64,000 bases of DNA, from contig CM060732.1 of the NCBI GenBank assembly GCA_030704615.1, forward strand, positions 12,338,001-12,402,000, given 5' to 3'. Positions 9,310 through 54,293 of this stretch are shown here, one piece after another. Every line of letters starts with the position of its first letter. Position 1 is the first letter of the stretch. The position numbers and the translations under genes were made by a program. The stretch comes from Takakia lepidozioides (taxonomy: Eukaryota > Plantae > Bryophyta). The notes below the pieces were generated by a model. The model ran no database searches. It was not told where the DNA came from and worked only from the letters and a program-made list of their open reading frames with translations.

Positions 9310-9661
9310 TGATTAGAAACTAGATTCACACTGTTGATACAGAAACACTCAATACAACACAATCACTCATTAAAACTAAGAGTCGAGCCAGGGGCACCCC
9401 AAGCTATGGGGACTCCACCCCACAACATCCTATTCTCCCTTCATAAGCACACTCAGATTCTAAGCAGTGAAAGAGCTCGGTCGTGCAGGCTCAACTCGAG
9501 AGGGATGAGCCGCACGACTGACGAGCTTGTGAAGATAAGATGGTTCAGGTGTCAAGCTAAACTTGACACCTGACTTAACACTTGAACTAATTCCAAGTGT
9601 TAAATACAAATAACTAGATTTATTCTAGTTAGTTTCACACTGTGTTTAGTTTAACTTGACA
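9310..9661 (-). repeat. 5' terminal B repeat of Gypsy-DNMT copy 1
   Basis: Diverged homolog of 29855-30203 (GTCGAGCCAGGGGCACCCCAAGCTATGGGGACTCCACCCC, hairpin series, TTGACA end). No A segment adjacent. Confidence 0.88.
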
Positions 9662-11190: not shown

Positions 11191-11194
11191 CACA

Positions 11195-17299: not shown

Positions 17300-17765
17300 C
17301 TAGCTCACCAAGTACAAACCTTGCCTGGTAATAACACAAGGAAGGCAAAAGCAATGTCTCATCCTCGACGATTTGATCTTCGCCCCCTCTCCCCCCATCC
17401 TTGTCAAGGACTCCTGGACCAGAAGCTGGCTGACTGCTAGCAATTTGAGCGCAACGAAGATTCTCTTATAGCTTTCACAGAGATGGACACAAAGAGGGGG
17501 GTTTAGCAATAGTCCAAGAGGCCATGAACCGTGATTATCCTCTTATTCCAATGGACATTCCAAGCCTTAACAAGAGGGTCTCAAGCATGGAAGAAAGCGG
17601 CATCCTAATCCACTTTCCAGGAAAGAAGGTTGACAGAGGCTACGTCCAAGACTGGGCGATTAGATACCTTGGTGGACCAGGTGAGTTGAGGCAACCTTTT
17701 TGCCATGCCAAAGGGCGAGGTTTCAACTCCATTGTCTTTGAGTCTCCAAAGGCAGCGGCCAAGGC
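17300..17765 (+). mobile_element. L1-type LINE, 5' part of ORF1 (DUF4283-like), interrupted by Gypsy-DNMT copy 2
   Basis: Removing 17766-30207 restores KGRGFNSIVFESPKAAAKA|FKFNPHLNGLNVNIFPWS. The left boundary is approximate. Confidence 0.72.
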
Positions 17766-18289
17766 TGTCGTGCGCATACATATCGCTACACAACTACATC
17801 GCTGTCCAAACCACACCACACATATATGCACAATAAAGTAGTCTACCACAATAGAAAGCTAGGAACACACTGTTCACACAAGAAACATGAAATCCATCGC
17901 TATCACTCTTTATAATAGTAGTCGAGCCAGGGGCACCCCAAGCTATGGGGACTCCACCCCACAACAACCTACACTCCCATCATGAGTACACTCAGATCTA
18001 AACGCATGCAGGAGCTCGGTCGCGCAGGCTCAACTCGAGAGAGATGAGCTGCGCGACTGCCGCTCTCGTGAAGATAAGACGGACCAGGTGTCAAACTAAA
18101 CTTGACACCTGATTTAACACTTGACCTAAATCCCAAGTGTTAAATACAAATAACTAGTTTTATGCTAGCTGTTTTCACACTGTGCTTATTTAACTTGACA
18201 GCTGTCGTGCGCATACATATCGCTACACAACTACATCGCTGTCCAAACCACACCACACATATATGCACAATAAAGTAGTCTACCACAAT
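17766..18289 (-). repeat. 3' composite terminus: A (17766-17850), B (17851-18200), GC, A (18203-18287)
   Basis: The two 85-bp A copies are identical. B equals 29855-30203 except TAAATCCCAAG versus TAAATCCAAG. Confidence 0.95.
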
Positions 18290-18299
18290 CGCCCCCCTA
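18288..18299 (-). promoter_or_regulatory. putative polypurine tract
   Basis: Minus strand reads TAGGGGGGCGAT immediately before TGTGGTAG (start of inner A), about 250 bp after the pol stop. Confidence 0.6.
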
Positions 18300-18546: not shown

Positions 18547-21522
18547 CTATCTAATGCATTGTGGACATAACCAATCCCCATTTGGAACCATCTCAAGAGG
18601 TGGAGTCAAGCACCCCATATGCCAACCTCTAGAGCATCGATCACACACCACCATGGTGGCTGCCCCTTTAGCAGACCCACACAACATGCACCTCAAACCT
18701 GCAGATACCACTGCCAGGTTTGGGTCAATCCTGCCATCGACATTCGGAAGGTGACATGGCGCACAATTACGCACATGGTCCTTCCAAGTTATGCCATCCC
18801 GACCCTCCAAGACCAAGACGCCTGAGGGCAAGACCTCTCGAACCCTCAAAATAACACGTCCTGCAGTCACATCCAGGGTCGTAGGAGCAGTCTGCTGCAG
18901 ATAGACATAGTCACCAGGGTTGAATCTCCGAACCCCAGGACGATAGCCCCCACCACGTATGGTAGCATACCTCAACGTATCACGGTGTTGTGCAATGGCA
19001 AGGTTCTCGAAAGCCATGGGCATGACTCTCTTGAACAACTCTGCACGCTGCTCACATGCACGTGCCCACACGTCCGGATCATCAAGGTTAAGAACTGTAG
19101 CAGCTTCTCTGCGAATGGATGTAGGCAAATCCGGCTCTCGGCCAAAGAGAAGAAAGTATGGTGAGAAGGAGGCAAGTGATGCTTGCTTGCTGAACCTGTA
19201 GCCCATGGCTAACCAGGGTAACTGAAGGTCCCAATCTCCTAGGTGTCCCTTCTGCAAGCCATACTTGCGCAAACCCCTCTTTACTGTCTGAACAACTCTC
19301 TCTGCCAAGCCATCGGCTTCAGGATAATCCCGAGAAGTGGTGCGGTGGTCTATCAAGGCCTTGTCACACAAAGCCTGAAACTCCCCCAAGAACTCTCTCC
19401 CTTGGTCCGTGAGTACCTCAGCTGGAGCACCGAATCGGCTAAGCACACAATCCAGGAATGCATACGCAGCTCCCTCACTAGCCTTATCAGGCAATGGAAC
19501 CAATTCAATCCACTTGGAGAAGTGCTCCACCATCACCAACATGTACTTGTTGTGGCGCATGGTCAGTGGCAACGGCCCTGCGAAGTCAAGACTCCACCTG
19601 TAGCCCAATCCCATGATCGGAAGAGGGTGCAATTGTGGAGTAGGGGCGTTGAATGAAGCACGCACCCTGTCACACACCATGCACCTAGCCACAAATTGTT
19701 GCACCTCTGTGTGCATACCACGCCACCAATACTGCCCCTGCAGTAGACTATGAGTGCGTCGCACCCCAAAATGCCCCAACTCCTCATGGGCATGCCGCAC
19801 TAACCGTGCCCGCTGTGTTGGGTGAGGCACAATCCTCACTCGACCATCCTCCCACACTCGGAGCAGGTGTGTCCCCTCCCACCTGAACCTCTTGGCTCGT
19901 TGTAGGATCCGATCCCTCTCCTTGGCAGTCATAGTGGCTGCCGTGTCTCCACTGCGGAGGTAGTCCAACACAACTGAATCCTCATGTATATCTTTGGCGC
20001 CACCCTGCTCATTGCTGGCCTCAGGGTCCTCAGACACTTGATCTACAGTCATCCCTGTTGTAGGTCCAACCTGGCCTTCCGCTGCCAAGATACACAGAAA
20101 TGCAGATGCATGCCATCCGGGCACCATCTCCTCGTCCGTCTCACCATGCCACCGAGCTCCAGTGTCATCCTGCTGGCTCGTGCATGGATTGCGACTCAAC
20201 CCATCTGCATTTCGATTGACCAAACCCGGTCGATGCACCACCTGAAAGTCATACTCTTGAAGGATGAGTGCCCACCGTGCAAGCTTCCCCGTAAGCTTGT
20301 CTGACTCCATCAACCACTTGAGTGGTTGGTGATCCGTGACAAGGGTGAAGAGATTGCCGTATAAATAGCACCTGAAGTATGCCACGGCCCACACTGCAGC
20401 TAAGCATTCTCCCTCATATGAGCTATACTTAGACTCTGCAGCATTGTTCGAGCGGCTAGCATAAGCCACTACGAACTCTCTTCCCTCATCATCCACCTGT
20501 GTGAGCACCGCTCCAAGCCCCAGCATGCTCCAATCTGTATGCAGCTGAAAAGGACGCCCCCTGATAGGTCGTCTCAAGATGGGCGCCGAGGTCAACCTCG
20601 CCTTGAGCTCTTGAAAAGCTTGTTCTTGCTCATCTTCCCACTGCCACTCCTGGTCCACCTTGGTCAGCTTGGTTAGAGCATTTGCAATGGCACTAAATCC
20701 CTTAACAAACCGTCTGTAATAGTTTGCTAACCCCATGAAAGCTCGAACTCGGCTCACATCCGTGGGGCGTGGAACCTGTGCAATGGACTCTACCTTAGTC
20801 TGCTGTACCCCCAATCCTCCAGGATATATCATGTGACCCAGATACTCAATCTGGTTGTGGAAAAACTTGCACTTCCCCGGATGTAACTTCAATCCGTGCG
20901 TCCTCAAGCGCTCAAATACCCCCTGAAGGTGTCTCTCATGCTCCTCCACCGTAGCACTAAAGATGATGATGTCATCTATGTAGCACCGAGCAAACTCCAC
21001 CCCTGCTAGAATCCTGTCCATGACTCTTTGAAACTCAGCGGGAGCGTTTTTAAGCCCAAATGGTAAGAACCGCCACTGGTATAGGCAATCCTTCCCGTGC
21101 TCATTGATCCCCCAGAATGCCGTCTTTTGCTTATCCGCCTCCTTGATCGGCAACTGGTGATATCCGGATCGTAAATCCAACGTGCTAAAGACCTTGGAAT
21201 GCCCAATGGCATCAAAGATCTCCTCTGGTGTTGGCATGGCATACCTATCGGACTTGGTCTGACGATTTACAGGCCGGTAATTACCGCACATACGTCTCTC
21301 CGTCCAATTGCCATAGACATCCTTCTTAGCTGGCATCACTGTGGCTGAAGCATACTCTCCACCAGAGAGCTCCACCAAACCTGCCTCCCAGAGATCTTGA
21401 GTCCTCATCTGAATCAAAGACCTCTCCATGTCACTGTATCTATAGGGTCTCCGAAAGATTGGCGTGTTAGTGGCCAACTCAATACGGATCTCTTGACCCT
21501 TCAGTGCTCCCAAGTCCTTCAA
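18547..21522 (-). CDS. gypsy pol: RT - RNase H - DDE integrase - C-terminal PHD finger (frame is open up to the TAG at 21682)
   Basis: LDLRSGYHQ, LPFGLKNAP, YIDDII; TDWS, SSYEGECLA, TDHQPL, NADGLSR; HHCC (HEELGH..CMVC), LDFAGP, TDQGREF, GLAER; CMLC..CDRC..WHMGC..WLCPQC. Confidence 0.96.
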   Translation of the reverse strand: MKDLGALKGQEIRIELATNTPIFRRPYRYSDMERSLIQMRTQDLWEAGLVELSGGEYASATVMPAKKDVYGNWTERRMCGNYRPVNRQTKSDRYAMPTPEEIFDAIGHSKVFSTLDLRSGYHQLPIKEADKQKTAFWGINEHGKDCLYQWRFLPFGLKNAPAEFQRVMDRILAGVEFARCYIDDIIIFSATVEEHERHLQGVFERLRTHGLKLHPGKCKFFHNQIEYLGHMIYPGGLGVQQTKVESIAQVPRPTDVSRVRAFMGLANYYRRFVKGFSAIANALTKLTKVDQEWQWEDEQEQAFQELKARLTSAPILRRPIRGRPFQLHTDWSMLGLGAVLTQVDDEGREFVVAYASRSNNAAESKYSSYEGECLAAVWAVAYFRCYLYGNLFTLVTDHQPLKWLMESDKLTGKLARWALILQEYDFQVVHRPGLVNRNADGLSRNPCTSQQDDTGARWHGETDEEMVPGWHASAFLCILAAEGQVGPTTGMTVDQVSEDPEASNEQGGAKDIHEDSVVLDYLRSGDTAATMTAKERDRILQRAKRFRWEGTHLLRVWEDGRVRIVPHPTQRARLVRHAHEELGHFGVRRTHSLLQGQYWWRGMHTEVQQFVARCMVCDRVRASFNAPTPQLHPLPIMGLGYRWSLDFAGPLPLTMRHNKYMLVMVEHFSKWIELVPLPDKASEGAAYAFLDCVLSRFGAPAEVLTDQGREFLGEFQALCDKALIDHRTTSRDYPEADGLAERVVQTVKRGLRKYGLQKGHLGDWDLQLPWLAMGYRFSKQASLASFSPYFLLFGREPDLPTSIRREAATVLNLDDPDVWARACEQRAELFKRVMPMAFENLAIAQHRDTLRYATIRGGGYRPGVRRFNPGDYVYLQQTAPTTLDVTAGRVILRVREVLPSGVLVLEGRDGITWKDHVRNCAPCHLPNVDGRIDPNLAVVSAGLRCMLCGSAKGAATMVVCDRCSRGWHMGCLTPPLEMVPNGDWLCPQCIR

Positions 21523-21681
21523 ATTGAAGGCAAAGCAATTCCTGTAAGCCCTCAGGAACCGCCGTATACGTCGTCTCTCTCCTCCGGTGACAATGGGTCC
21601 AATGTCAGGCTCCCAATTGTCCTCCGTAACTGCAACCTTAAGTCCAGTGGGCTTAGAGGTAGAGGACGCATCCTGTGGTTG

Positions 21682-24410
21682 CTATGCTGCAACCTCTTGA
21701 GCAGTACCCCCTTCCTGCTCAGTCAATGACAAGGCCTCATCCTGCCCCATCATCTCATCATTGAGAACCTCCTCATCCCGAGAAGAATCCCCAACCTCAT
21801 CCATCACAGCTGCCTTCGCTGCCAACTCCCTCTGAACCTCGAGCACCTCCCACATGTGCCATGGATGTCTACACCTCGTGGTCCTCACCGGCTCGCCCCC
21901 ACTCGCTGCCTGTACCGTCTCGGTAGGCAGAGAGACCGTCAAGGGAAGTGCACTCCGCACTCTACGTTGCTCAGCCATAGCCATGCTGACAATCCAGGTC
22001 AAGCAATTGAGATCCATTGCTTGCCCCAACACCTGACGACGTGATGCCTCAGAAAGAGAAGGCACCGCCGTGGTCCCAGTGGAAAACCCCATAGCCCGCT
22101 CTTGCTCGTCGGCATTAGGCTCCACTAACTGCTGCAAATGAGCATCCCACAGGAGGCCAGGTCCACCATCCCGAAAAGCATGGGATCCTGGGAAGCTGAG
22201 CAGTGTAGGTAATGCTGCTCGTGGTTGACCCACCCTGTTGACCACTGCCAAAGGCGAACGGTCATCGTGTCTCACACGTTGAGACTGCCTTCCTGTGTCC
22301 AAAATGCCATCCCCCCATCAAATGCACGCTTGAGCAGTGCGGGTGGCATCAAGTTAGTCCACCATAGTCGTGGACGATGAGCCTGTGACCCCACTGCAGC
22401 TGCATCCAGCAACACTGCTGACCCAAGCCACGACCGGACTTGATGCACACTGGCCATCACCCTGGCCCGAGAATCACCCATCAGTGGTACATTCTCCAAG
22501 ATGTATGCTGGAGATACAGCTTGATGAAGCTGCAAGCAGCGCAAAATCCACACCATCTCCCAAAACAGACCCGTCCTCGAGTCTCGCAATCCATTGCCAT
22601 GCCCGGCTGATGAATGCCCTTGGCAGGGCCAACCTGCCACTATCAGATCAATGGAGCCAACCTGCTCCAAATCTTGCGCCCCCAACAAGGAAATGTCTGC
22701 TGGCAAGGCTTGTTGGTATCCACGAACTGCAGACACAAGCAACAAGTCAGGGTACTGCTGTACCAACTGAGCCACATGGCGCAGTGAGACGCGTCGTGCA
22801 GTCTCATCCCTCTCCACATACAGGTAACGCCTTACCCGCACACCTGCCTGTAGCACAACAGCCAATCCGGTGCTGATCCCGCCAAACAAGTCCAGAAGGC
22901 AAATGCCTTCATCCGGCCGCTGCCACACAAGAGGTGTGGTGTCCAATGGCGACAACTGAGGTGGCCCTGGTGCAATCACCGCACTCTCCTCCTCTCCTGA
23001 CGGTACAAAAGCTTCTTCCCAAGCTTGTTGCACCCGTCCATCAGCAGCTTGCTGCAAATCCTTGCTCGTACCCCACAACGGAGTGTGAGCAACCATGGCA
23101 GGCAACTCCGCCGTACCATGCATGTCATCCTGCTCTGCTGGAGGTGGCACATCCTCTGCATGGGCATTGCCTTCCAGCAACTCTCCAGGCCAACTAACGG
23201 CAGCTGTGAAGGCGGCTAGTGTTGGCATCTTGCCCCGCTGGGCAGCTGCAATACCCCCAATGAATGTCACAGGGAGCTGTGCACGGCGACCATCCCCTGA
23301 CTGCCATCCAGGCCTGTAGGATGCTGACTCCTCCCAGAAATCCAGGGTGAAGCCCATGGGGTATAACACTGCCCCACCAACGAGGGCATCGTAAGAGACC
23401 GCGTCTGTCACAATGGCCTTGGCTCGCATCACTGAGCCATCTACAGGATGATCCGGCTGCAGTCTAATAGCCAACTGATGCCGTGTCATGCCGCGAGCCT
23501 GCTCTGATCCTCCCAGAGATGTCTGTATCTGGAAAGGACAAGGCTCCATATCCGCCTCCATGAGGCCCAAACCTGCAATAGCAGCTCTGCCCAACATCAG
23601 TGGCTGAGCTCCTGAGTCCAACAAGACCCGCAGTGGCCGGTACTTCTTGCCTGCCGGTCCACTCAAAGTGAAAATGCCTCCCTGGTTGTCTAACAAGACA
23701 ACTCCAGGTGTCACCATGGCGCGCTCAATGGCTGGCCTAGCTGGCAGCTCCGTCAACCTGGCAGCTGCAACTTGCCATGGCGCAGCCGTGGCAGTCTTGA
23801 CCCTCAAATCCGAGGATCCCTCTGCCACTACACCTTCCACTAACTCCGCAGAAGATGAAGTGACCTCCCCACTCTCACAGAGTGTTGCTGCTAGTCTGAA
23901 CACTGCAGCTGGTCTCACCCCCGGCGTCGCAATCATTGTTGCCGAGAACAGTGGGGCCTGACACACAGAGGTGGCTGCCCCCAATAACACACCGGCCGCA
24001 CTAGCCTTGGCAACAGGAGTCAATGCTGCACGTGTAGCTCTCCCCAATGGCATAGTAACCTTCGCCTCGGTAACAGTCGGGCGAGAACTAGGTGACATGG
24101 ATGGCGTCGACACAGTCTCCGCCAATGTGAATGACTGAGGAAGCCTTGCCTGACGGCTTGCCTCCCCACGCTGTGGATCCAATTCCACCTCTGCACCTCG
24201 TGGCTCAGGAACTCGTGCTGCTCCTCGAGTCACGGCTGCAGCAGACTCCACCTGCTCTAGTGGTAGTGCTGCTCCGCACATAAATCCCATGCCTCCCATA
24301 TCTCCTCCCTCAGGAGCAGGAGGTGGACCATCCCGCCTGGGAGCCGGTACCGCCTGAGCTATAGCCATGGCAGCGAGCCTCTGCTCTAGCTGCTGAAGCC
24401 GATTGGCCAT
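21682..24410 (-). pseudogene. aspartic protease plus DNMT3-like C5 cytosine methyltransferase (frameshift near 22300)
   Basis: LLDSGAQ; motif I LDLFGGIS, II YVERD, IV AGWPCQ, VI ILENVP, VIII AHRPRLWWTN, IX EQERAMGF, X RRQVLGQAM. Confidence 0.92.
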
Positions 24411-24557
24411 GCCTTGGTCAACACCCTGACCTCCGCGTCCTTGGCCATGTGGAGCTTACCCTTGGCCTGCACCTCGTGCCCGACCACCTCGTCCTCTTTG
24501 GGCTGGTCCACCTCGCCCCCGGCCACCATTGTCCCTTGGAACTGGCCTGGGCGCAAC

Positions 24558-25850
24558 TCAGTCATAACACTGGGCATCTACATGCCCATACTTGCCACAA
24601 TGCCCACACTGCAACTGTGCAGGCTGTGCTTGTGCCGGCCTTCTGCCATTCTCTGGGCAATCTCTTTTGACATGGGGTCCTCCACATGTCCAACATATCA
24701 CCCCTGGTTGCTGTTGGCCTGCAAAAGATGCCACGGGCCTCTGCACCTGAGGTCCCCTGTGAGCTCCATGGAACTTGGGCTGGGCAACCTTGCCCCCCTG
24801 ACCACGCTGTTGGGCAGTCCCTTGTGCCTGTGGGCTGACAGCTGTGCCCCGTACAGGCATGTCCTTGCCAAATCCAATTGTAACAACTCGCTCCTCCACC
24901 ATGTTGAGCTCAATCCGCTCAGCCAGCAGAAACACATCTGCTAATGTGGGTTGGGCTGCTTGTAACAGGGTTGCATCTCGCACCCTTCTCTTGAGCTCCT
25001 TGTCCAGAATTCCATACCAAAACTGGATTGCCTGAGCTTCAGTAACCCCTTGGGTCACACTTATCAAGCACCTCATACGAGTGTACGCCTCTCGCAGGCT
25101 CTCACTGGGTTTGCGCTGGAAGTCTTGCAAACTTCGCAGCTTCTCTGTCCGTACACTTTGGTAGTTCCTCCGCAACTCCTGGAAGAACTCCACCACCGGG
25201 TTGAATCTAGGCACATGTGTTGTAGTCGTGGCATGAGGAGTAGTAGCACCTTTTGAACTGGTACCACCTACAGAAGTACCAGCACTACTTGCTCCACTAC
25301 TAGTGCTGGCAGTGGGAGCTATTGGTACTGATGCAGCTACTGGTCGCGTCGTGCCTCGAGTAATGGAGACGTAGTCAGGTGACCAATACATCCTCCACTC
25401 CTCAATCTCTGCTTCATGTCCTTGCCTGAACTCGTGGTAATCGTCCATAGGCGGGCCTTCCAAATGCTGGAACAGTCCCTTCCACGCCATGAATGGGGTG
25501 AATAGCTGTGGATTGCGCATCTGCTGCAAATCACACCAGCTGTCGAACTCCTGGATAAAGTCATCCAACTCGATTGTGCCCACAGCTCCAGAGTACCTAC
25601 GAGGCCCCTTGGTAGCTCCATACATCTCCTCCATGTCGTCCCACAACAATGGCGAATGAAAGTGCACACCTGTTGATGAAGCCTCCGAGTCTGTGTCTGA
25701 CTCTATAGTAGTTGAGGGTGGCGGTGAAGGTGGTCTGAACCGAATACCTTGTCTTGTGAACCCACTCTCACTGTTACTGCTTGTAGCCGTACTCCCCTCA
25801 ACACCCTTGGATAACTCCGTAATGACACTCACAATGTGCACCTCCTCCAA
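24558..25850 (-). CDS. gag with two Zn knuckles (premature stop caused by an 8-bp deletion)
   Basis: Retrotrans-gag-like QRKPSESLREAYTRM; CWTCGGPHVKRDC and CGHCGKYGHVDAQC; same frame as 22272..24410. Confidence 0.88.
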   Translation of the reverse strand: MEEVHIVSVITELSKGVEGSTATSSNSESGFTRQGIRFRPPSPPPSTTIESDTDSEASSTGVHFHSPLLWDDMEEMYGATKGPRRYSGAVGTIELDDFIQEFDSWCDLQQMRNPQLFTPFMAWKGLFQHLEGPPMDDYHEFRQGHEAEIEEWRMYWSPDYVSITRGTTRPVAASVPIAPTASTSSGASSAGTSVGGTSSKGATTPHATTTTHVPRFNPVVEFFQELRRNYQSVRTEKLRSLQDFQRKPSESLREAYTRMRCLISVTQGVTEAQAIQFWYGILDKELKRRVRDATLLQAAQPTLADVFLLAERIELNMVEERVVTIGFGKDMPVRGTAVSPQAQGTAQQRGQGGKVAQPKFHGAHRGPQVQRPVASFAGQQQPGVICWTCGGPHVKRDCPENGRRPAQAQPAQLQCGHCGKYGHVDAQCYD

Positions 25851-26370
25851 GTGACACTATAAGGCTCTAGTACTAATCTAATAGTGACACGGGTGGGCAC
25901 CTGTTGCAGTCTAAGGGTCATATCCCAATGGCTCAGGGCACCTGCACCTGCATCCACCGCAAGAACTCCTATGGTTGGCTGGTCATCAACCCAGCCTCAC
26001 CATAGAAGAAACACTGGTGGTCTTGCTGGTCATCACTCCAGCCTCACCACCGACAGCATACTCTAGGATTGACCGGTGATCAAATCCGGCCTAATCCCTA
26101 TGAAAGCAAGCGCCCACACAAAACCAACATGGCGCACAGTCAAGCATGCAGGTGTTGGGGGGGGATCCAAACACAAGAAATCAAAGCATCAACACCCCCA
26201 CACCAAAATCCAGCTGCAATGCGGATCCTGCAGAATAGCCCAGCCCAAAACCCCGGACTGACTGGCCTCCACCAAGAGAGGCTTTGGCAACTACAAGTAC
26301 AAGGTAATGAAAATAGTACAGAGATGGAGGGGAAGAATAGAAGCCCGACCCAGCAAGATCTAATCCTGAT

Positions 26371-27207
26371 CTATGCTATCAACTGCCAGACTTCTCTCAA
26401 AGTGCCTCGCTTTGCATGATGGTAAGGTGTAGGAGGTATATCTATGTCCAGAAACCTGCCACTAACCTTGTCCCAAGCTACAGTAGCTCGCTCTAACCAA
26501 CCCTCCTCCTCTTTTTGCCAAGTAGAGACAAAGCAACACTCTGCTATCCCCCGCTCACTGAACACTAAAGAAAACAAAGGTAGGGTCTGATAGTCTCTCA
26601 ACTCGAAAGCTTTGAGACGGTTGCGGGTGTCCTCATTGCGAATGACTGCATCTCCTTCACGCACAACAAACATGTCATTGCTGATGAACCCCGGCTCGTG
26701 GTTGCCCTGTGCAGAGCGTATCCGGCTGCAACCATGTCTGATTGCACAAACTTGTGTAGCTCCTGCTCCTCTGCTCCAGTACACCACGGCCTTGTGGCTG
26801 AACACCTTGGTCCCCGGGGCTGTCTTTGGCTGTGTTCCAAGCCTAGCTTTCACCCACCTTGGTATTTCACCTACAGCTGCAGAACTGCTGGCTCCAACAG
26901 AGTTCTGACTGTCCAAGGCGATATTGAGGCCCTCAATGCCAACTACAACAGTCTGTTGTCTACTGCTAATGCCTGACTCCCAGTATGCAATCAACTCGTC
27001 CAACTGTTCTCCACTCAAATCAGTCTGAGTTCCTTGGGAAACATAGATCCTGTCCCCTTGTGTGCACAAGCTAAGAGAAGAGACCTGCCCTTCAATTACG
27101 TCCTCATTTCCCCCAGCCATACAGGGAGTACATCCACAGGTTTGTCTCTCATATAGGCCAGCACAGGTTCTAGAAACAGGATTGTGGATATTTCGTGGCA
27201 CACTCAC
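26371..27207 (-). CDS. accessory ORF of unknown function upstream of gag
   Basis: 278-aa open frame, conserved in copy 1; no motif recognised; start codon uncertain. Confidence 0.55.
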   Translation of the reverse strand: MSVPRNIHNPVSRTCAGLYERQTCGCTPCMAGGNEDVIEGQVSSLSLCTQGDRIYVSQGTQTDLSGEQLDELIAYWESGISSRQQTVVVGIEGLNIALDSQNSVGASSSAAVGEIPRWVKARLGTQPKTAPGTKVFSHKAVVYWSRGAGATQVCAIRHGCSRIRSAQGNHEPGFISNDMFVVREGDAVIRNEDTRNRLKAFELRDYQTLPLFSLVFSERGIAECCFVSTWQKEEEGWLERATVAWDKVSGRFLDIDIPPTPYHHAKRGTLREVWQLIA

Positions 27208-29854
27208 ACTCTAAAAATTCCATAGATTTTTAGCAGAGTCCCCAAAACAGAAACCAGGTTTAGATAGGTAGATTTCCCCTTTCTGCAGCTATCCCCCCAA
27301 AAACTGGGTCAACCAGAGTCCATTTGACAAAGATATGATGAATTTGGCTCCAATCATTTAAATTAGATCAAAAGGGCCCCCTTTTTTTTTTAAAGGTTTT
27401 CAAATTAAAAAAAATTTAAAGTTACACCCAAAATATCTAGTAATTGGTTCCCGGTTCCCTAAGTTCTATATGGTTTCCTAGGTTCCCTGGCCACGTGCCC
27501 TATAAGGATTTCAGTTGTGTTTACAAATGCACCCCCCACAGCTCTTGGTTACCAGTGACCTGCTCTCCTCCAGTCGAGATCCGTAGCTATGCCGAGCCTT
27601 AATCCTTTGCACCAATATTCCCAACAAAAGCAGGAGCACTTACAATGCAACCCCGGAAAGCACCAGAGCTAACTAGCTTGATCAAGAACGCTTACAGCCC
27701 TTCAAGCGTGCTGATTTTTCAAGGTGGCAACAACAGATATGCTATCACTGATTGTGTAAGCCTTTACATGGAGTTGGCACAGGCTGCCCTCAAGTTTTGG
27801 ATTGTAAACATAGACCGAGCAGGTCGTGTAGTGAGCTGGGCCCCTTCAGCTCATATCCCGCTCATACACCAAGTGTCACCTGGTGAGTCCACAGTCTCCC
27901 ACTCTCATGCTCTCCAGCCGCTGGCTCTACTTGAACTCCCATTCACTGCTGCCCCATTCGCTGCTCCCATTCAGGTCATGAATTTGTGGAAGGACTCACC
28001 TCAGATTGGAGGTGAATACCAAACATCTTTCATCCATAGCCATTTTCTAGTGTCATGCTCTTACAAACACAATGGCTGCTTACTGTGTAGGACAGACAGT
28101 AGCAATCCCCTCGTCCTCCAGTAAACCGGATCTCATTGCATAAGGCACTGGTATCGTGAACAGAAAACGTAGTCAAGTAGCGGTGAATTCTTAGTTCATG
28201 CAGCTGATTTCCGAGCCCTTTTGTCGATCCACGATTTGGTCATGCCAGTAAGCCCCTACAACATTGGCTTCATATCTCGCAGGGGAAACAATTATGGATG
28301 CCAAACAGGCCATCCAGGGTGGGCACTCAGTCCATCGCAAGTTTTGGTCCAATACCTGATCAAAGGGTTGCACATGAGCAGCTTGCATGCTCGTCAATCT
28401 CCAAAACCATGCAGCAGAGATGCCCGTCAGCTCCTACCAGCTCCTGGTTCTGCTCAGCCCTTCCCAGCCGCTGCCTCTATTTCGCTAGCCCTTGGTTCGG
28501 TGTGGGAGATTGGAACCACCGAATGGAGCTGCAGAGAACCAGGAAGCAAGTGGAAGGAGCAGGGCTGCCCACAGCCTCTTCTTCATCAGTCGACTCAGCA
28601 TCAGGAGGAGCTGGAATGGCTTCATCACCAGCCCTCTTACATCTGGGGATCCAGTCCAAAGGTAAGGGAAACCAGCCGCACTTGCGCATGAAAAGCCTGG
28701 TAATCAGGCCTAAATTTCAGATGCCAGGCTGCATAGCCCTCAATGTGCAGGTCCAGAAGCATCAAAACACCCTGGATTCATTCAATTCCAGCCACATTTC
28801 CAGTGTGAAGACATAGCCGCCAATGCACATGGCAATTAGGCCTGGAATCAGGCTGCAAAATCTTCGTAAGGCCTCACCATAGGCATGAAATGCTTCAGAT
28901 TCCTGCAGTAAAAGCACTTAGCAGCCCCCATTCACACCAGCACTGCTTCCACAAGCAGAGGCCGAAGCAGCAATTCGCAAGCTGATGGGCACCGACAGCG
29001 TTGAAAGCCTGCGTCACACTTCTCCCCTGCTACTCCTCTGCTCTATTCTCCTCTAGATCTAAGTCTGCTTCAACGTCGTCTTCAGCAATACAATGATCTT
29101 GAGACCGCCGCTGCTCCGAGGAGTGAGATTTGGACGAAACCTGCTTGGCCCTCCCTAAGTCCCTCTGCTTTGGTGCAGGGGCTGCCCTGGGTTGAGCAAC
29201 AGCCTTTGTATTCCGAGTCTGCTTTGCGGCACGCCCACTCCCAGTACCCTTACCTCAACTCCCAACCCTAGTCACAACAACCACTGCCTCTTCGCAGCGC
29301 GCGTTCTGACATGATCTCGCATTGGAGCAACCTCCTCTGTTGCACCAACTGTGCGCCACCGGGAAGTGGCTCATCTGGTGGGAGCGGCCTCAGGGTATGC
29401 AGCAGCTACTGCTGGCACCTGTGGTGGAGAGCGGGGTTGGCGCACTCCACTACGCAGCTCTGGCATCCTTCACCCATGCACTCCACCAGCCTGCGTACTG
29501 CCTCACGATGTGCGCTCATATCTTTGCTATCAAATCCTTCACCTTTTTCTCCCCTTCTGAATGTAACCTAATATCACTTCTCCATTTGTGACCTACCCCG
29601 TCGCAATCAAATATCTTAACATATCTCTGATTGAGTTCAGTAAGTTTGCATCTCTGCCGTTTGTGACAGAGAGTCGTCAGACCATAATGACCTCACTTCA
29701 GATCCGCTGTCTCTGAGCCATGCCATGGGTTCTCAAATGTATGGAAGGCGAATTGAGAGATTGGTCTCTCTCTCATTTTCAAAACAAAAACCACAAGTGC
29801 TAACCCTCAACTCCTACCTTGCACTCACAGGTAAGAGGTCATCTCTCTCGAGTG

Positions 29855-30203
29855 ATAGAAAGCTAGGAACACACTGTTCACACAAGAAACATGAAATCCA
29901 TCGCTATCACTCTTTATAATAGTAGTCGAGCCAGGGGCACCCCAAGCTATGGGGACTCCACCCCACAACAACCTACACTCCCATCATGAGTACACTCAGA
30001 TCTAAACGCATGCAGGAGCTCGGTCGCGCAGGCTCAACTCGAGAGAGATGAGCTGCGCGACTGCCGCTCTCGTGAAGATAAGACGGACCAGGTGTCAAAC
30101 TAAACTTGACACCTGATTTAACACTTGACCTAAATCCAAGTGTTAAATACAAATAACTAGTTTTATGCTAGCTGTTTTCACACTGTGCTTATTTAACTTG
30201 ACA
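29855..30203 (-). repeat. 5' terminal B repeat (349 bp) of copy 2
   Basis: Direct repeat of 17851-18200; begins TGTCAAG on the minus strand. Confidence 0.95.
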
Positions 30204-30207
30204 AGGC

Positions 30208-33200
30208 GTTCAAATTTAACCCTCACCTCAATGGGTTGAATGTCAATATATTTCCCTGGTCTTCCAAAATAGGCAATAGGAATGGTAAATTATGGGGCCC
30301 AATGACTCTTTCAGTTGTACTAGACCAATACCCAGTCAACTTGCCAGACATTGCAAATCACTTTGGATTTTATCTTGGGGTGTTTGGCGATTTTTGACCC
30401 CCACATGTGAACAGACACACTTAGACAAGATCCAGCATGGAAATGATCCGTCACTGTAGCCTCTCGGCTCAATGAAACAGGTTGTGCACAAATAGTGATT
30501 ATGATGCCAAAGGAACCACAAGTACCAGAATTCGTTAAGCATTGATAACTATAATTACACTATCCGACTAATTGAAGATACATCTTCTTTAACATGTTTC
30601 AATTGTAGCACGCTGGGCCACATCAAGGCTAAATGCGTCAAGGGGAAGAGGAAAAGGTCAGGATCCAGGAATGCCAAGATGACTCCCCCACTAATCAACA
30701 TCAATTCACCTATGGACTCTGCTCAACCTAATCTCTTGTTCAATTCCATCTCTACCAAATATATATGTCAACATCTAATGAGCTGTTACAGTCCAGCCCC
30801 ATATTGAGAGTTGCTAAAAAAATAAGAATCTCTGCCATGCGAGATCCACTGAATGTCCTACAAAGGGCAGCGGTAGCGAGAGAAGGCCCTGCTCTTATAT
30901 ACTGGAGCGTCCGCAAGATTCCGAAAAAGGTGGCACATGATAAGCCAAATGAAATTACACCCTAAGTAAAATATCCGGCCAATCATTTATGGCTAAACTG
31001 GGTAGCCGAAATGACTTAAATATTAGTGATGAAGGTGCAGTTAAGTTCACGGGAGCTCTATCCTACGGGTAAATCGCACGTAACGATCGGGTGATGTGGC
31101 ACCCCACGTATCTTACGTGGCATGCTTCGTGAACCCTTTCATATTTTAACCTGTATTTGTCCGCCACGTGGGGTAAAGTGGTCTTTCGTCCAGCTACGTG
31201 ACATGGACAAGTCAATTGATTTATTCTGGATTCGACATAGAAAATTAATTATTTCGAGTAAAAGAATATTGAATTGGTTTACTTTACTTTTGTCTTTTAG
31301 AAAAGATTCTTTTCTTAAACGGAGGCCATGGACGCACTTTTTTTGTGATTATTTTGGGGAAAAAAATTTAATGGGTCTGGGAGAGGAGCTAGTAGGTGTT
31401 GCTGGATGAGGGACTTCAACATCGTTGACTCCTCATACGACCCGCAGGGGCTCTGGACTATTCACCCCTTGCACGGAAGAGGTTAACCAATGGCTATCTT
31501 TTAACCCAAAACCACAACCCAGTTGAAGCTGTCAATTCCTCTCAAATCCCACAATCTCCCTCTCACCTTTTCTTCACATGGACAAACAACAGAGATCTGG
31601 AAAGCCTACAAATGGGTCGGCTAGACAAAGTCTACACATCCCTCAACCTCATTCAGTGGATTACCAAGGACCCTCAGGAACCCATCGCCCAAGGATTTGA
31701 TCATGCTTTGGTTTTAGTCTCCTTCTCTATCCCACACCTTCAAACGAATGGCCAGGGTCTCTATAAACTCAACACCTCCCTCTTGAAGCTTCCTTCCTTC
31801 AAATTATGACTAGTCGGTCTGGGCCCAAGTCATGATCCCCGAGCAAGACCCTACAGAGAGATTTCTTTCCACGCTCAAGGTAGTTAATATATAGAAAGCC
31901 AAAAAATGAGCAAAGACCTTGCTTTAGCCAGGAAGAGAAAGATCAAAGCACTCACCAAATGCACCTGATTCGAGCTTGAAGTGAATTGGCGACACACACG
32001 TGAAGAACTTGAAATCCTCAAGGCTCCACTTTCTATGATTATTGTCCTTTGTTCTAGGTTAATATGGCCCATTTCTGGTTCCAATCATATGAAGCTTAAC
32101 TAGACCTTTTAAGGCGATTCAGGGAGTTCATATCTAGGTTGACCTGCTCTCCCTCTTCATTGAGGGGGAGGTTAGTTCTTTCCGGGTGTGTTGACATTGT
32201 TGTTCTTTTCTCTCTCCTTCTACCTAAAGAGGTTTATTCGTTATTTCACTTAGTGTATATATAACTGGGGTTTTAATTTTTTTCCCCAAAATAATCCCAA
32301 AAAAAGTGCGTCCAGGGCCTCCGTCTACCTTAAAAAAGAGTGGAGCTTATCGCTGGTAGGGCAGGTAAAATGGACTCAGATTTGGAAGGAAATCTGGCGC
32401 AAAGATAGAGCTTCCAAGCTCTCTGCCTTTCTATGGAAAATTGCGCATCGTATCCTCCCAGTCAAGGTGTTTATGGGAACTGATAATGTGGATTGTGACA
32501 TGTGCTCAGGAAATCGGGAAACCCTGGAACACTGCCTGGTGGCTTGTCCTTTGGCAAAGAGAGCCTGGTCCCTGGTCATCCGTTTCTATTCGAACTGGGA
32601 ATCTCTTCCTTCTCCTACCCCTCCCCCCCTCTTTCTTCTTAATTATAGGCAGGGAGGGAGTATGCTTAAATGCCCGGTGTGGGGTTGTTTGCGTGCTCAT
32701 TCTTTGTGGGCAATCTAGAAGGCCAGATGTGCCTGGATTTTTCAAGGAAAATCCCCCAGTCTCAGGTCCATTCTGTTTAATGTTTATATACATCTGAGAA
32801 CTGAGGGGAGGAAAGCCTGGCTGGCTTTGTGTGCAGCTCTTCCCCGAGCTTCAGAACGGCGCAGGGCGAAGCTTCTCAAGAGGTTTGATATCTCCTGGTG
32901 CAAGAATGACCTCCTCGGCACCAGACTGTCCGACACAACAATGCGCTGGAAAGACACCTCCCCCCCCCCCAATGGGAAATCTCCGGTTGACGGGGAAGAG
33001 TCTAACTTCAACTGGAGGCACAAGCGCGCTAGGGATTCTAAATCCAGGGCTCACCTTAAGTTTTAGTGTTCATCTTTAGCGCATTGGGCATGCCATTGGG
33101 TTCTGTCGTTTCTAGACTCTGTTGTTTTCAGGCACAACTGTTATCTGGCTCTGCAGTTATGGAGGTAGGAAGATTAGCTTCAGCTTTTAGGCTCGGCTGC

Positions 33201-33489: not shown

Positions 33490-33924
33490 ATCTTTTCTAA
33501 AAGACAAAAGTAAAAGTAAACCTTTTACTTGAAATAATTAATTTATTATATCGAATCGAGAATAAATCAATTGACTTGTCCATGTCACGTAGCTGGACAA
33601 AAGACCACTTCACTCCACGTGGCGGACAAATACAAGTTAAGAGGATGAAAGGGTTCCCTAAGCATGCCACGCAAGATAAGTGGGAGTGCCACATCACCCG
33701 ATCGTTACGTGCGATGTACCCGCAGGATAGCTCCCGTGAACTTAACTGTACCCTCATCACTAATATTTAAGTCATTTCGGCTACCCAGTTTAGCCATAAA
33801 TGATTGGCCGGATATTTTACTTAGGGTGTAATTTCATTTGGCTTATCGTGCGCCACCTTTTTCGGAATCTTGCGGACGCTCCAGTATATAAGAGCGGGGC
33901 CTTCCCTCGCTGCCGCTGCCCTTT
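33490..33924 (+). promoter_or_regulatory. putative F-box gene promoter (G-box CACGTG about 33616, reverse CCAAT about 33803, TATATAA 33885)
   Basis: Motif order and spacing, followed by a pyrimidine-rich leader; TATA lies about 165 bp before the ATG. Confidence 0.6.
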
Positions 33925-36520: not shown

Positions 36521-38458
36521 TCACCAGTAATCCCCACAAGAACAAGCCCCATCATGGAAGTGGTGAAAGCGGTTCCCATCCCGAACAACAATTTCTCGCC
36601 CAACAATGCTCGAAATGAATTTGGTGGCAGTGTGACAATCACCGCACACTCGAAGGTTCTGGATAACACGGATAGGTGTGCCAGGGGGTGTGCTGATCAG
36701 ACCAAAAGCAATGGCCAGCTTCTCACTATGGTGGCACAAGGAAAACTCCTTTTGCTCATCCTCCACATCATGCAATACAAAGCGTGTATCAGGCATGTAC
36801 CCAGCCTCCGTCATGAGCCCATACAATCGCTTCAGCTCATCATGGATTTTCACAATTTGAGGATGGAAATCATCTTCTACAACAAATGTATGCACCTGGT
36901 TGTTAACCTCAATGCAGCTTCTCCCTGGCTCTTTCCTGACACACCTGTCCTCCATCATTTTCCACACCTTTGCTTTATCATCCCACCTCCCAGCCGCAGC
37001 ATAGATGTTTGACAGCAGCACATAAGCTCCATGGTCCTCTGGATTGCATTTGAGAAGGCATTTTGCCGCATGTTCTGCTAGCTCGAAATTGCCATGAATT
37101 CTACAAGCACCAAGCAAGGCCCCCCACACACCGGCGTCTGGTTCAATTGGCATTCTGTTAATGAAATCTTCTGCCTCATCCAATTGCCCCGCACGACCAA
37201 GAAGGTCCACCATGCAGCCAAAGTGCTTCACTGTAGGGATAACCCCCTGATTTTGAATCATGGAAAAGTAGTGACCGCCTTCCTGCACCAGGCCCACATG
37301 GTTACATGCAGACAGAACAGATATAAAGGTGACATTGTTCGGCTTCAAGCCTTCCTCAAGCATTTGTTCAAACAGTTGCAGGGCCTCCCTACCAAACCCA
37401 TGCTGTGCAAATCCTGCAATCATCGCAGTCCATGAGACCACATCTCGTTTAGCCATATTGTTGAACATTTGATGTGCATCCTTTATGCCTCCACATTTGG
37501 CATACATGTCCACAAGCACATTCCCCAGAATAGTATCTGGTACAATCCCAGCTTTGATAATGTCGGCATGGACCTGCTTGCCTTTTTCCAGGGCTCCTAG
37601 GCTGGCACATGCATTGAGAATGCAAGTAAATGTGATCCTGTCAGGCTTCACTCCTTCCCATAGCATTTGCTCATAAATCTTGAAAGCCTCCCTGTCACAG
37701 CCCTGCTGAGCATATCCTGCGATCATGGCATTCCATGAGACAACATCTCGATCCGACATATTGTCAAACACTTGATGCGCATCCTTCATGCTCCCACATT
37801 TGGCGTACATGTCAGCAAGGGCAGTCTCCAGTATGATATCTGGTGCAATGCCAGCTTTGATGACAGCTGCATAAACCTCCTTGCCCTTTTCCAGAGCTCC
37901 CAGCATGGCACATGCCTTGAGAACACAAATGAACGTAACCTTGTTAGGTGTTACCCCTTCACCTTGCATTTCCTCATAGAGCTTGAAGGCCTCCTCACCA
38001 CATCCATGCTTGGCATATCCTTGTATCATTGTAGTCCACGTAAATGTATCTCGTTCAGGCATTTTGTCAAAAACTTGGCGAGCATCCACGATACTCCTAC
38101 ATTTGGCGTACATGTTGACAAGGGTGTTGAGCACAATGATGTTTGGCTTGAATCCAGTTTGGATAATGTGGGCGTGCACTTGCTTTCCTTCTGCTAAGTC
38201 TTTGCTGTTGATGCACTCCTGCAATAGACAGACATAAGTCCTGGAATCTGCCCAAATGCCTTGTTGATTCAAAATGTGCAGTGCCTCTCTCAATCGACCT
38301 GCCTTACACAATGTTCTCAAGTGCATACAAGTGCCAGAAGAGTTCTTGTTGACTCCCTTTCTTGGTCCTGTTTCGAAAGGAGTGGCGATAGTCGAGGTTC
38401 CACCCCTGCCCTTACTCTGATGTCCAACAGCCAACTGTGCCTGATTCAACACTGCCAT
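36521..38458 (-). CDS. PLS-E1-E2-DYW pentatricopeptide repeat protein (organellar C-to-U editing factor), 645 aa
   Basis: P-L-S repeats, PG box KEPGRSCIEV, HSEKLA, CGDCH and terminal DYW. Confidence 0.96.
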   Translation of the reverse strand: MAVLNQAQLAVGHQSKGRGGTSTIATPFETGPRKGVNKNSSGTCMHLRTLCKAGRLREALHILNQQGIWADSRTYVCLLQECINSKDLAEGKQVHAHIIQTGFKPNIIVLNTLVNMYAKCRSIVDARQVFDKMPERDTFTWTTMIQGYAKHGCGEEAFKLYEEMQGEGVTPNKVTFICVLKACAMLGALEKGKEVYAAVIKAGIAPDIILETALADMYAKCGSMKDAHQVFDNMSDRDVVSWNAMIAGYAQQGCDREAFKIYEQMLWEGVKPDRITFTCILNACASLGALEKGKQVHADIIKAGIVPDTILGNVLVDMYAKCGGIKDAHQMFNNMAKRDVVSWTAMIAGFAQHGFGREALQLFEQMLEEGLKPNNVTFISVLSACNHVGLVQEGGHYFSMIQNQGVIPTVKHFGCMVDLLGRAGQLDEAEDFINRMPIEPDAGVWGALLGACRIHGNFELAEHAAKCLLKCNPEDHGAYVLLSNIYAAAGRWDDKAKVWKMMEDRCVRKEPGRSCIEVNNQVHTFVVEDDFHPQIVKIHDELKRLYGLMTEAGYMPDTRFVLHDVEDEQKEFSLCHHSEKLAIAFGLISTPPGTPIRVIQNLRVCGDCHTATKFISSIVGREIVVRDGNRFHHFHDGACSCGDYW

Positions 38459-43163: not shown

Positions 43164-43710
43164 AACATGGGCTCCATGATCTCATCAGCACACCCCCTGG
43201 GACACCATCAAGAACCTTTGGGTGTTTGGTGACTGCCACACTGCCACCAAGTTCATCTTGAAGATTGCTGGGGGATGCCAACGGCTTTCACCACTTCCAA
43301 AATGGCCCTTGTTCTTGTGGCGATTACTGGTGAAACAAGGGCTCCATCATCAGCACACCCCCTGGGACACCTATCCGCGTCATCAAGAACCTTCGGGTGC
43401 GTGGTGACTGCCACACTGCCACCAAGTTCATCTCGATGACTGTTGGCAATCGTGGTTCTGCAGGATGCCAACCACTTTCACCACTTCCAAATGGAGCTTG
43501 TTCTTGTGGTACTGGTGAAACATGGGCTCCATGATCTCATCAGCACAATGACGAACCTTTGGGTGTGTGGTGAATGCCACACTGCCACCAAGTTCATCTC
43601 GAAAATTGTTTGGCAAGCAGTGGTTCTGTGGGATGCCAACCACTTTCACCACTTCCAAAATGGGCCTCGTTCTTGGCGATTACTGGTGAAACAAGGGCTC
43701 CATGATCATG
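43164..43710 (+). repeat. three decayed tandem copies of the DYW 3' end plus stop and 3' flank
   Basis: Units at about 43185, 43349 and 43539 each contain ACTGCCACCAAGTTCATC...CACCACTTCCAAA...TACTGGTGAAACA(T/A)GGGCTCCAT. Confidence 0.92.
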
Positions 43711-44860
43711 CAAGGGTCGTTGTCAGTACAATGAGTTGAACCAGTTGTAGATCTCTTCGCTTGGACAATCCTCAAATTGTAAATCAGGCATCAACGGCTG
43801 ATCAAAATTGTATAATAGTAGGTACACCCGTCCCAGTAAAATGGGGTAGTCCAGCCAATGCTCAATCTCCATATCATCCTGATGCCCAGTGTATCCATTC
43901 TTTGGAACAGGGTGCTGCATTGTCACTGGAACACTGCTGTTTCCACTCAATCACAGGTGAAGTCAGTTGCCCCTTATAGAGAGAATTTGCAGAGAGCATC
44001 AGTGTCTGGTATCTTCTAATGAAGACACATTAAGCAACAACCCCAGGGACAGCCCTGTTGGCAGGTTGGGCTTGGAAACAGGGCGAAGGGCATATATGTG
44101 TAGAAATTTATGTCTTAGCCGTGCCACAGACATAGAACTTATTGTAAGTCATTGTTAGCACTATAGTTATTAGTATTACTCCACGTAGTGCACCATTGAC
44201 TATCTCAGTAGTCATAACTATCACTACTATCAGAATGATTCACTTGGAAAAAAACTTGAGTTATTTGGTGTGCTGAAGACATTTGAGTCATTTAAACTAC
44301 TTGAGACATTCAAACGACTCAAATATTTTGAATGCTTATTACTCATGTAAGTCATTGGAATTACACATTTGAGTCATTTACTGATTCATCCAAGTAATCC
44401 AAATGACTGTGTTCTGATATACACAGTGCTCCCAATCACTATAAGAACGACTGCACAACCCAATAATTATTGGTGGAGTCATTACTCTTACTCATCATAT
44501 GAAATTGGAGCACTCTGATAACGACTACACGTGGCACTAACGTAGTCATGCCTACTGAAACTTAATGACTGAATGTGGTGCGGCCACGTGGCATCATCTT
44601 CCGTAGAATGAAGGAATGTGGAGCAACCACGTGGCACAATCTCATCCGCTCAGACTAAATACATGTGGCGGGAGATGACTCCGGCCGGGGCCGGCGTAAC
44701 TAAGAGCCACTTCGTCTTACGGTTACTGCCCCCTTTCAGGGGTGGGCCCTATAAAACTATGGGTGCCCGGAGGGCACCCCGTAACCCATGGGCAAGCGGA
44801 TGGGCACCCCGCGGAGGGGCATCCCAGGGGGGGCCCTGGGGTGCCCGTGGTGAAAAAGGC

Positions 44861-53852: not shown

Positions 53853-54293
53853 TGTCGTGCGCATACATATCGCTACACAACTACATCGCTGTCCAAAACC
53901 ACACAACACATGTGCACACCACACACTAGTATACCACTAGTCCACCACTAGTCCAACCATTAGTCCAACCACTAGGCTACAACTAGTCAGTCACTAGGCT
54001 GCCACTATGCTGCCCACTATGGCAGTCACTAGTCCACACAATGATAAAGAAGAAGAATACAAGTACAAGCTCATGCGAGCTCACAAAGCTGAAGCATAAA
54101 CTCATGCATATATAAACTCATCACTCAAATACAAGTCAAGCCAAGTGCACCCCACGCCATGGGGAATCCACACTACGGCGCCATAGCTAGGCGCGGTGAG
54201 GCTCAACTCGAGAAAGATGAGCCTCCCGCGCTTGCCGTGTAAAAGCTAGCTATTTTCTAGCTAATTTCACACTAGTGGTAAAATAACTTGACA
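53853..54293 (-). repeat. solo A+B terminal unit (441 bp) of a related Gypsy-DNMT subfamily
   Basis: First about 45 bp identical to A (TGTCGTGCGCATACATATCGC...); hairpin GGCTCAACTCGAGAAAGATGAGCC; ends TAACTTGACA; no clean TSD. Confidence 0.85.

Follow-up and report, generated by a model that had tools for sequence, protein, structure and literature searches.

A putative self-primed Ty3/gypsy element with split terminal repeats in Takakia lepidozioides

How does a retrotransposon that combines a DDE integrase with split direct repeats begin reverse transcription, and how is its product inserted? The replication of such elements is so far unexplained, and the question is raised here by a 12.4-kb Ty3/gypsy element, copy 2, in a 64,000-nt stretch of DNA from the bryophyte Takakia lepidozioides (GenBank assembly GCA_030704615.1, contig CM060732.1, positions 12,338,001 to 12,402,000 of the forward strand), referred to below as the window. 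The window is eukaryotic plant DNA, with genes that include PPR-DYW, F-box, and CDC50 genes. Copy 2 is encoded on the minus strand, from 30203 to 17766, so the repeat at 29853–30203 is its 5′ repeat. Sequence comparison suggests that this element very probably primes with the first 10–14 nt of its own RNA, as Tf1 does, rather than with a tRNA. Taken as a whole, the explanation that we judge best, and consider likely, joins this self-priming to an end-joined complementary DNA (cDNA) opened at an internal junction.

A site past the 5′ repeat that pairs with the repeat itself

Self-comparison of copy 2 revealed two kinds of direct repeat, A (~350 nt) and B (87 nt), with A1 forming the left end of the element. 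The initial annotation had described a 15-nt perfect inverted repeat at the inner edge of the 5′ repeat, in place of a TGG-type tRNA primer-binding site (PBS), and recomputation bears out both points: plus-strand positions 29839–29853 are the exact reverse complement of 30037–30051. Base 29853 is the A of the terminal CA of A1, and the remaining 14 nt are the PBS proper (29852–29839), which starts with CTC and not TGG. The complementary segment, the candidate primer, lies 185 nt upstream of the site within the 5′ repeat. Chance was assessed from the longest complement anchored 0–5 nt past the repeat end, using 300 dinucleotide shuffles of the repeat; the 14 nt of copy 2 compare with a shuffled maximum of 9 and mean of 5.2, and none of the 300 shuffles reaches 14. 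The 17-nt pairing with one mismatch reported earlier for a second window copy, copy 1, was also recovered (16 of 17 positions), with an unbroken run of 8 nt that 11 of 300 shuffles reach. Diverged contigs of the same species (records 1, 2, 17, and 18) align up to 29834–29841, the far edge of the site, and not beyond. The observed pairing is a real feature of the element.

Scans of metagenomes and genomes yielded 56 related loci. Two further families, family 2 (~70% protein identity) and family 3 (L050 and L051; 68%), have repeats unrelated in sequence to those of the window and alike in plan. After its CA end, family 2 carries CTCAAAGAAC, with the complement 160 nt upstream in its own repeat; family 3 carries CTTGACAAAGAT, with the complement 165 nt upstream in its own repeat. 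The match between site and repeat is 11 nt in L016 (reached by 1 of 300 shuffles), 10 nt in L027 (2 of 300), and 12 nt in L050 (0 of 300). Of the first 10 positions of the site, 6 differ from family to family, and all 10 form Watson-Crick pairs in copy 2, L016, L027, and L050. The last base of the primer is always a G, opposite site position +1, and the T after it faces the A of the terminal CA. Loss of complementarity across the family had been named as grounds for abandoning self-priming; instead, a site at +1 past the CA end is matched to its own repeat in each of three families, and the pairing survives two-sided changes. Ten pairs of left repeat and site were examined, of which four hold a perfect run of at least 10 nt, one is copy 1, and one is a fold-back in L037.

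These results bear on whether the site might be primed by a host RNA, be it a tRNA, a tRNA half, or something else, with the match to the repeat incidental. Half-tRNA priming is known in plant copia elements (PMC6317226), and our ARAGORN search, which covered the window and the 56 relative loci, found no tRNA in them for comparison with the site. However, pairing at +1 with the 3′ end of a mature tRNA calls for a site that begins with TGG, which this one does not, and Rfam gave no tRNA match in 29700–30300, only a weak microRNA-precursor match (E 0.26) at hairpins in the first part of A. A tRNA primer is disfavored because the three sites are each complementary to their own repeat and none starts with TGG, and we regard host-RNA priming as extremely improbable.

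The candidate primer is surrounded by a hairpin that is present in all three window copies (copy 2, copy 1, and a diverged solo unit), with fold z-scores of −3.4, −3.6, and −4.7 (0 of 200 shuffles each). Its stem had been reported to differ yet stay paired among these copies, which holds: 34 of 36 cells of the three-row alignment pair, the other two being a shifted bulge in the solo unit, and two-sided changes affect 3 of the 12 pairs, a covariation with weak statistics given three related sequences. With six rows, 61% of cells are paired, and three rows have another hairpin geometry. In the window family the primer falls mostly in a 12-nt loop with a 6-nt palindrome, while in families 2 and 3 it is base-paired inside the hairpin stem, without an open loop or the palindrome. 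A kissing-loop switch, raised initially beside self-priming, therefore fails outside the window family. The hairpin is wholly or partly deleted, with the rest of A intact, at L007:1766–2075, L033:4722–5031, and L008:2268–2595. Two further hairpins lie in the first part of A (30088–30145), one of them holding an inner copy of the TGTCAAG with which the repeat starts and its inverse; they are possibly extra integrase or promoter sites.

In the proposed mechanism, transcription would start in the loop of the A1 hairpin, near 30051, giving an RNA that lacks the 5′ arm of the hairpin. The first 10–14 nt of this RNA can pair with the site past the CA end, and by analogy with Tf1/Tf2 the element's reverse transcriptase (RT) would cut the RNA just after the primer, so that the new 3′ end primes the minus strand. 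A short second helix starting at the cut may position this 3′ end: the bases just past the primer have a downstream partner of 6–9 pairs within the repeat in 13 of 13 copies examined, as the best match of a search made without a chance control. The A2 hairpin would be transcribed whole and would mask the second copy of the primer. We infer the loop start, the free 5′ primer, and the masked 3′ copy from folding and from TATA-like words. In a folding model that excludes pseudoknots, the primer–site pairing in L016 and L050 is ~0.9 for an RNA that starts in the loop and 0.00 for one with at least 22 nt 5′ of the primer end. The usual spacing from TATA to start is ~30 nt; in L016 a TATAAA starts 31 nt ahead of the primer, and L050 has a TATA-like word 29 nt ahead of it.

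The right end of L037 (3244–3878) reads B-GC-A-CA-PBS and goes on with the first 180 nt of A in reverse complement, as far as an inverted TGTC. It looks like a cDNA end that bore a primer copy, folded back, and was inserted at the inverted-TGTC site, or it may have been copied from a long primer; in Tf1, the primer stays on the cDNA.

Two other accounts of the pairing have to be weighed. The duplex might be a real RNA structure with another job, such as dimerization or packaging, a kissing-loop contact, or a translation switch, while priming takes place elsewhere. Loop palindromes occur in retroviral dimer signals as in the 12-nt loop of the window family, and folding yields competing helices; yet the palindrome and open loop are missing from families 2 and 3, in all three families the duplex stops right at the CA boundary, the required starting point of minus-strand synthesis, and L037 appears to have the site copied onto a cDNA end. 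Such a role without priming is improbable in our judgment. Alternatively, the element might prime itself with a longer RNA whose start coincides with, or lies close to, that of A, the cut primer carrying ~150–180 nt of upstream repeat. The inverted tail of L037, which matches precisely the stretch from the beginning of A through to the primer, would suit this, as would the window copies, whose site still pairs with the upstream arm present. Against it, the upstream arm fully blocks the primer in L016 and L050, the TATA-like words sit 29–31 nt before the primer, and snap-back of plus-strand DNA explains the L037 tail equally well. We give a long primer similarly little credence.

Split repeats and a proposed end-joined intermediate

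The terminal repeats assumed in the initial annotation exist, but not as the plain direct long terminal repeat (LTR) pair of Ty3/gypsy elements. Copy 2 reads A1, primer site, internal region, purine tract, B1, GC, A2, B2, that is, A-internal-B-A-B; likewise, the solo copy does contain the hairpin and is an A+B unit rather than A alone. The outer ends of copy 2 start with TGTC and finish with GACA, with GCCT on both flanks. The A-internal-B-A-B form with a 4-bp target duplication is found in copy 2 and L007, and an A-internal-B form with such a duplication in L013; these three are the elements with an exact duplication among four complete ones.

At the B/A junction, GACA-NN-TGTC occurs in all three families and in L052 (42% protein identity), with GC, AC, or AT as the spacer, and the outer ends of complete elements are without this 2-nt spacer. 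The A/B junction consists of the CA end fused to the first bases past the purine tract and is variable, with a 3-nt loss in copy 2 and a filler of ~19 nt in L006/L007. The right ends of family 2 comprise 19 distinct cases once duplicates are merged by flank and the reverse-strand B of L036 is excluded: 13 have B only, 4 B-A-B, 1 a fold-back, and 1 a deletion. The split-repeat layout, the 4-bp duplication, and the GACA-NN-TGTC junction, none of which had been annotated initially, set the element beyond a Tf1 look-alike.

Standard LTR reverse transcription, applied to the positions of the primer site and purine tract, predicts a cDNA of the form B-A-PBS-internal-purine tract-B-A. This would be an ordinary LTR element with an LTR of B+A, its right end set by the primer site and its left end by the purine tract. 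The integrated form would then correspond to a circular permutation of that cDNA, joined end to end and opened at the B/A junction. Joining of the cDNA ends, by ligation as in 2-LTR circles or by a template jump of the RT, would create the A2/B2 junction; the DDE integrase would open GACA-NN-TGTC, discard the 2-nt spacer, and insert the ends, duplicating 4 bp of the target. With one junction opened, the product would be A-internal-B-A-B; with both opened, it would be A-internal-B plus a free A-B unit. Integration through an end-joined cDNA opened at the internal palindrome is the route towards which we lean, with less assurance than for self-priming; it fits the fusion of the CA end to post-tract sequence at the A/B junction, the GACA-NN-TGTC palindrome, the spacer-free outer ends with 4-bp duplications, and the L037 end.

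Priming could take place as proposed and the split layout still arise without an end-joined intermediate, through a single-stranded route like that of DIRS/PAT elements, through concatemers, or through a double-cut linear cDNA with later recombination. The 13 of 19 family-2 right ends with B only are what a double-cut linear cDNA would give, although they could also reflect B1–B2 recombination or assembly collapse. The mirror form A-B-A-internal-B, predicted by a symmetric circle, was found at none of 7 left ends, and the cDNA of DIRS-1 is described as mostly linear and single-stranded (PMC7192593). On the other hand, an A-internal-B form has no 3′ A for first-strand transfer and presumably cannot propagate by standard reverse transcription, while the near-identical repeats of copy 2 (A 99.7%, B 100%) and its intact duplication make the B-A-B end look primary. 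In addition, no tyrosine recombinase match was found in the 13 frames scanned out of 25 element frames of at least 100 amino acids (aa). An origin of the layout without end-joining is unlikely, but it is the most serious of the alternatives.

Several observations, including the right-end count and the missing mirror form, weigh against the combined explanation of self-priming and end-joined integration. On the priming side, 4 of the 10 examined pairs are decayed (L002 and L013) or have had the hairpin deleted (L007 and L033, which lost hairpin and primer from A1 and kept the site). The folding switch of copy 2 is not clean, falling from 0.65 to only 0.19 at 60 nt; copy 1 is unchanged by the upstream arm, and the switch in L027 is not clean either. 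No canonical TATA box stands 29–31 nt before the primer in the window family, and for the two additional duplexes of the Tf1 "pretzel", 7 copies offer short helices at shifting positions and no conserved equivalent. On the integration side, the target duplication of L016 has one mismatch, the solo A+B unit is not flanked by a matching duplication, and the L050 contig is circularly permuted, so that its B-A-PBS order may be assembly collapse. Finally, the sequencing runs consist of contigs and thus give no view of the RNA start, strong-stop DNA, or a circle.

Self-priming alone is not rare; it is predicted for 12% of surveyed plant LTR elements, in Tcn1 and TAR (PMC6317226). The new point is its association with an element that has a DDE integrase and DIRS-like split repeats. 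The positions of primer site and purine tract determine where the cDNA ends, so the layout becomes a testable prediction of end-joined integration, and close relatives in Marchantia polymorpha make tests practical. If the explanation is right, an end-joined cDNA of the 2-LTR type, a dead end for most retroelements, would be the integration substrate. The element would then be a natural system with cleavage of a 2-LTR-type junction as its main path, which in retroviruses is a secondary and debated one, and it would give a clue to the origin of split direct repeats.

Features of the element and its surroundings

The coordinates of the features are collected in Table 1. Pfam places RVT_1, RNase H, H2C2, and rve in this order in copy 2, the gag-protease-RT-RNase H-integrase plan of Ty3/gypsy, and the best solved relative is Ty3 Gag-Pol (E 2e-92). 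A C5 cytosine methyltransferase domain (PF00145, E 1e-11) lies upstream of the RT; downstream of this domain, pol is broken by one frameshift and one stop. The pol frame closes with a PHD finger (PF00628, E 1e-10), and Pfam gave no chromodomain match at the integrase C-terminus. Copy 1 (9661 to ~1957) is ~91% identical to copy 2 over the common coding part and is cut off near 1957.

Table 1 Features of copy 2, copy 1, and the solo unit in window coordinates
Feature	Position	Strand	Basis or remark
Repeat A1, 351 nt, left end of copy 2, TGTC...CA	29853..30203	-	self-comparison
Non-tRNA primer-binding site (putative), 14 nt, immediately past the CA end of A1	29839..29852	-	
Predicted self-primer, 14 nt	30038..30051	-	30037, the base that follows, pairs with the A of the terminal CA
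Hairpin around the primer	30023..30061	-	5′ arm 30061-30049, loop 30048-30037, 3′ arm 30036-30023
Second helix, downstream partner of the bases that follow the primer on its 3′ side	29926..29932	-	7 pairs, one G-U; comparable partner in families 2 and 3
Extra open frame, 279 aa, upstream of gag	26371..27210	-	without Pfam match
Gag-like frame	24558..25856	-	weak Retrotrans_gag match, E 0.0055; CCHC motifs by eye
Protease-like segment and C5 cytosine methyltransferase	22272..24455	-	protease motif by eye; PF00145, E 1e-11
RT, RNase H, DDE integrase (H2C2 + rve), C-terminal PHD finger	18547..21681	-	Pfam
Polypurine tract, immediately before B1	18290..18298	-	
Repeat B1, 87 nt, ends GACA	18203..18289	-	
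B1/A2 junction palindrome GACA-GC-TGTC, predicted integrase opening site	18197..18206	.	
Repeat A2, 99.7% identical to A1, second hairpin and primer, without terminal CA	17851..18200	-	
Repeat B2, identical to B1, right end, ends GACA	17766..17852	-	2 nt in common with the A2 end
Target-site duplication GCCT, right copy	17762..17765	-	left copy 30204-30207
Copy 1 repeat A1	9310..9661	-	hairpin 9480-9518; PBS next, 9309-9294
Solo A+B unit, diverged subfamily, TGTC...GACA	53853..54293	-	hairpin 54191-54231

In the 5′ region of copy 2, a segment of ~2.2 kb (27482–29651) has family-contig coverage far below that of the rest of the element, and within it copies 1 and 2 share only 28941–29037 (98%). 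Copy 1 stops at an apparent Ty1/copia LTR in 1–1932, which we take to be copia on the basis of its motifs, with a frame at 560–1549 without a Pfam match; its left end is adjoined by LINE-like RT frames (RVT_1) at 9692–11194. Beside copy 2 lies a 449-nt inverted duplication (30862–31307 and 33490–33924; 91%), near a zf-RVT frame. Elsewhere in the window, two divergent PPR-DYW genes occupy 36521–43709, the second trailed by tandem partial copies of its 3′ end (42987–43709). A 59-nt inverted match (80%) at 44690–48643 surrounds frames with RNase H (44979–46574) and a weak PCIF1_WW match (46358–47272), possibly a DIRS-type element with a methyltransferase.

Relatives and comparison with known systems

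Protein relatives are named from Calypogeia, Riccia, Marchantia, Sphagnum, Klebsormidium, Closterium, and Tetraselmis, and relatives of the methyltransferase domain from Marchantia, Calypogeia, and Sphagnum. Close relatives are annotated in Marchantia polymorpha, and the nearest RT among the matches listed (81%) is from Marchantia. An RT-RNase H tree was built from 109 sequences, the window plus 108 of 120 matches listed (12 were too short). Rooted at the midpoint and without a named Tf1 or Tcn1 row, it unites the window with proteins of Klebsormidium, Marchantia, Calypogeia, Closterium, and Tetraselmis in one clade of 91 rows (support 99), separate from the six rows that bear a chromodomain. 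The RT-RNase H-integrase-PHD region is 43% identical to a Klebsormidium nitens retrotransposon protein with a PHD; the K. nitens rows in the clade carry no KnitGypsy label, and P0055 is not confirmed as a named KnitGypsy copy. We propose, tentatively, a widespread green-plant Ty3/gypsy clade in which self-priming would have evolved apart from Tf1/sushi, with a hairpin-guarded 3′ primer, attachment sites in mid-LTR, and end-joined cDNA as the obligatory substrate.

More distant loci were also inspected. L052 (4611–5072) has a 12-nt inverted repeat between its B/A junction (GACA-GC-TGTC) and a gag-like frame, extending to 15 of 16 positions with one mismatch. This is possibly a fourth self-primer; L052 was not accepted as a fourth family, as 4 of 200 shuffles reach 12 nt and its A end is not independently defined. 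L040 (38% identity), which resembles an unrelated plain-LTR element, and L044–L046 (52–55%), too decayed for a primer-site reading, were left outside the pairing tables. L053–L055 are without ends. A search of viral contigs gave no hit with a single protein and, with an alignment, one distant locus, L056, in which no GACA-NN-TGTC junction was found. L050, L051, and L052–L054 are eukaryotic retrotransposon contigs in bacterial genome bins, where contamination is likely.

Among known systems, the integrases of foamy virus and HIV-1 are reported to cleave palindromic 2-LTR circle junctions (PMC1180852, PMC4372172), which resembles the opening of a palindromic junction of abutted ends proposed here for a DDE integrase. 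In these viruses the palindrome arises by the joining of cDNA ends and belongs to a side route, whereas in the window element it is encoded inside the LTR and would serve the main route. Phygy and Selgy are non-chromovirus clades with tRNA-Trp/Thr or tRNA-Ala primers and no extra domains listed in the source text (PMC6317226). By description only, the window element is like them a Ty3/gypsy element of a non-seed plant, without a chromodomain and with a 4-bp duplication; unlike them, it is a candidate for self-priming and carries DNMT and PHD domains.

In Tf1/Tf2/Tj1, in Tf1/sushi elements generally, and in plant Tcn1, a PBS after the CA end is complementary to the element's own 5′ repeat (PMC4600332, 10.1101/2022.12.06.519325, PMC5341516, PMC6317226). 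The window element shares this position, the complement in its own repeat, and the Ty3/gypsy domain order. The rule used for Tcn1, a complement of the repeat of at least 10 nt past the 5′ repeat (methods of PMC6317226), finds 14, 11, 10, and 12 nt in copy 2, L016, L027, and L050, respectively. Unlike Tf1/sushi, the window element has a PHD finger rather than a chromodomain, a DNMT domain, and split rather than plain LTRs. Its target duplication is 4 bp, compared with 5 bp in 100% of Tcn1 (PMC6317226), no three-duplex "pretzel" like that of Tf1 (10.1101/2022.12.06.519325) was found at a conserved position in the 7 copies compared, and a hairpin 5′ arm lies upstream of the primer. Chromodomain, duplication length, and LTR form thus place it outside Tf1/sushi/Tcn1.

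The terminal-repeat order is instead that of the PAT-like and Ngaro tyrosine-recombinase retrotransposons, with split direct repeats A1...B1-A2-B2 (PMC7192593), a likeness that suggests a circular-type intermediate. Unlike these, the window element has a DDE integrase, a protease, a PBS, a purine tract, and a 4-bp duplication, and no recombinase match. The closest parallel in layout and domains is KnitGypsy-Dnmt3 of Klebsormidium nitens, in which a gypsy pol with a Dnmt3-type methyltransferase is bounded by DIRS-type A-coding-B-A-B repeats (de Mendoza et al. 2018, PMC5890265); as far as the text of that article shows, the split layout is therefore already published. Its text gives no priming or integration mechanism, and its text supplements do not contain "KnitGypsy", "PBS", or "TSD". 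In the literature searched we found no account of priming or integration for the KnitGypsy-Dnmt3-like clade, a statement of novelty on which supplementary figures may bear. The window element has the same combination of a C5 methyltransferase in a gypsy pol with A-coding-B-A-B repeats, here in a land plant with PPR-DYW genes rather than in Klebsormidium, and is best filed as KnitGypsy-Dnmt3-like.

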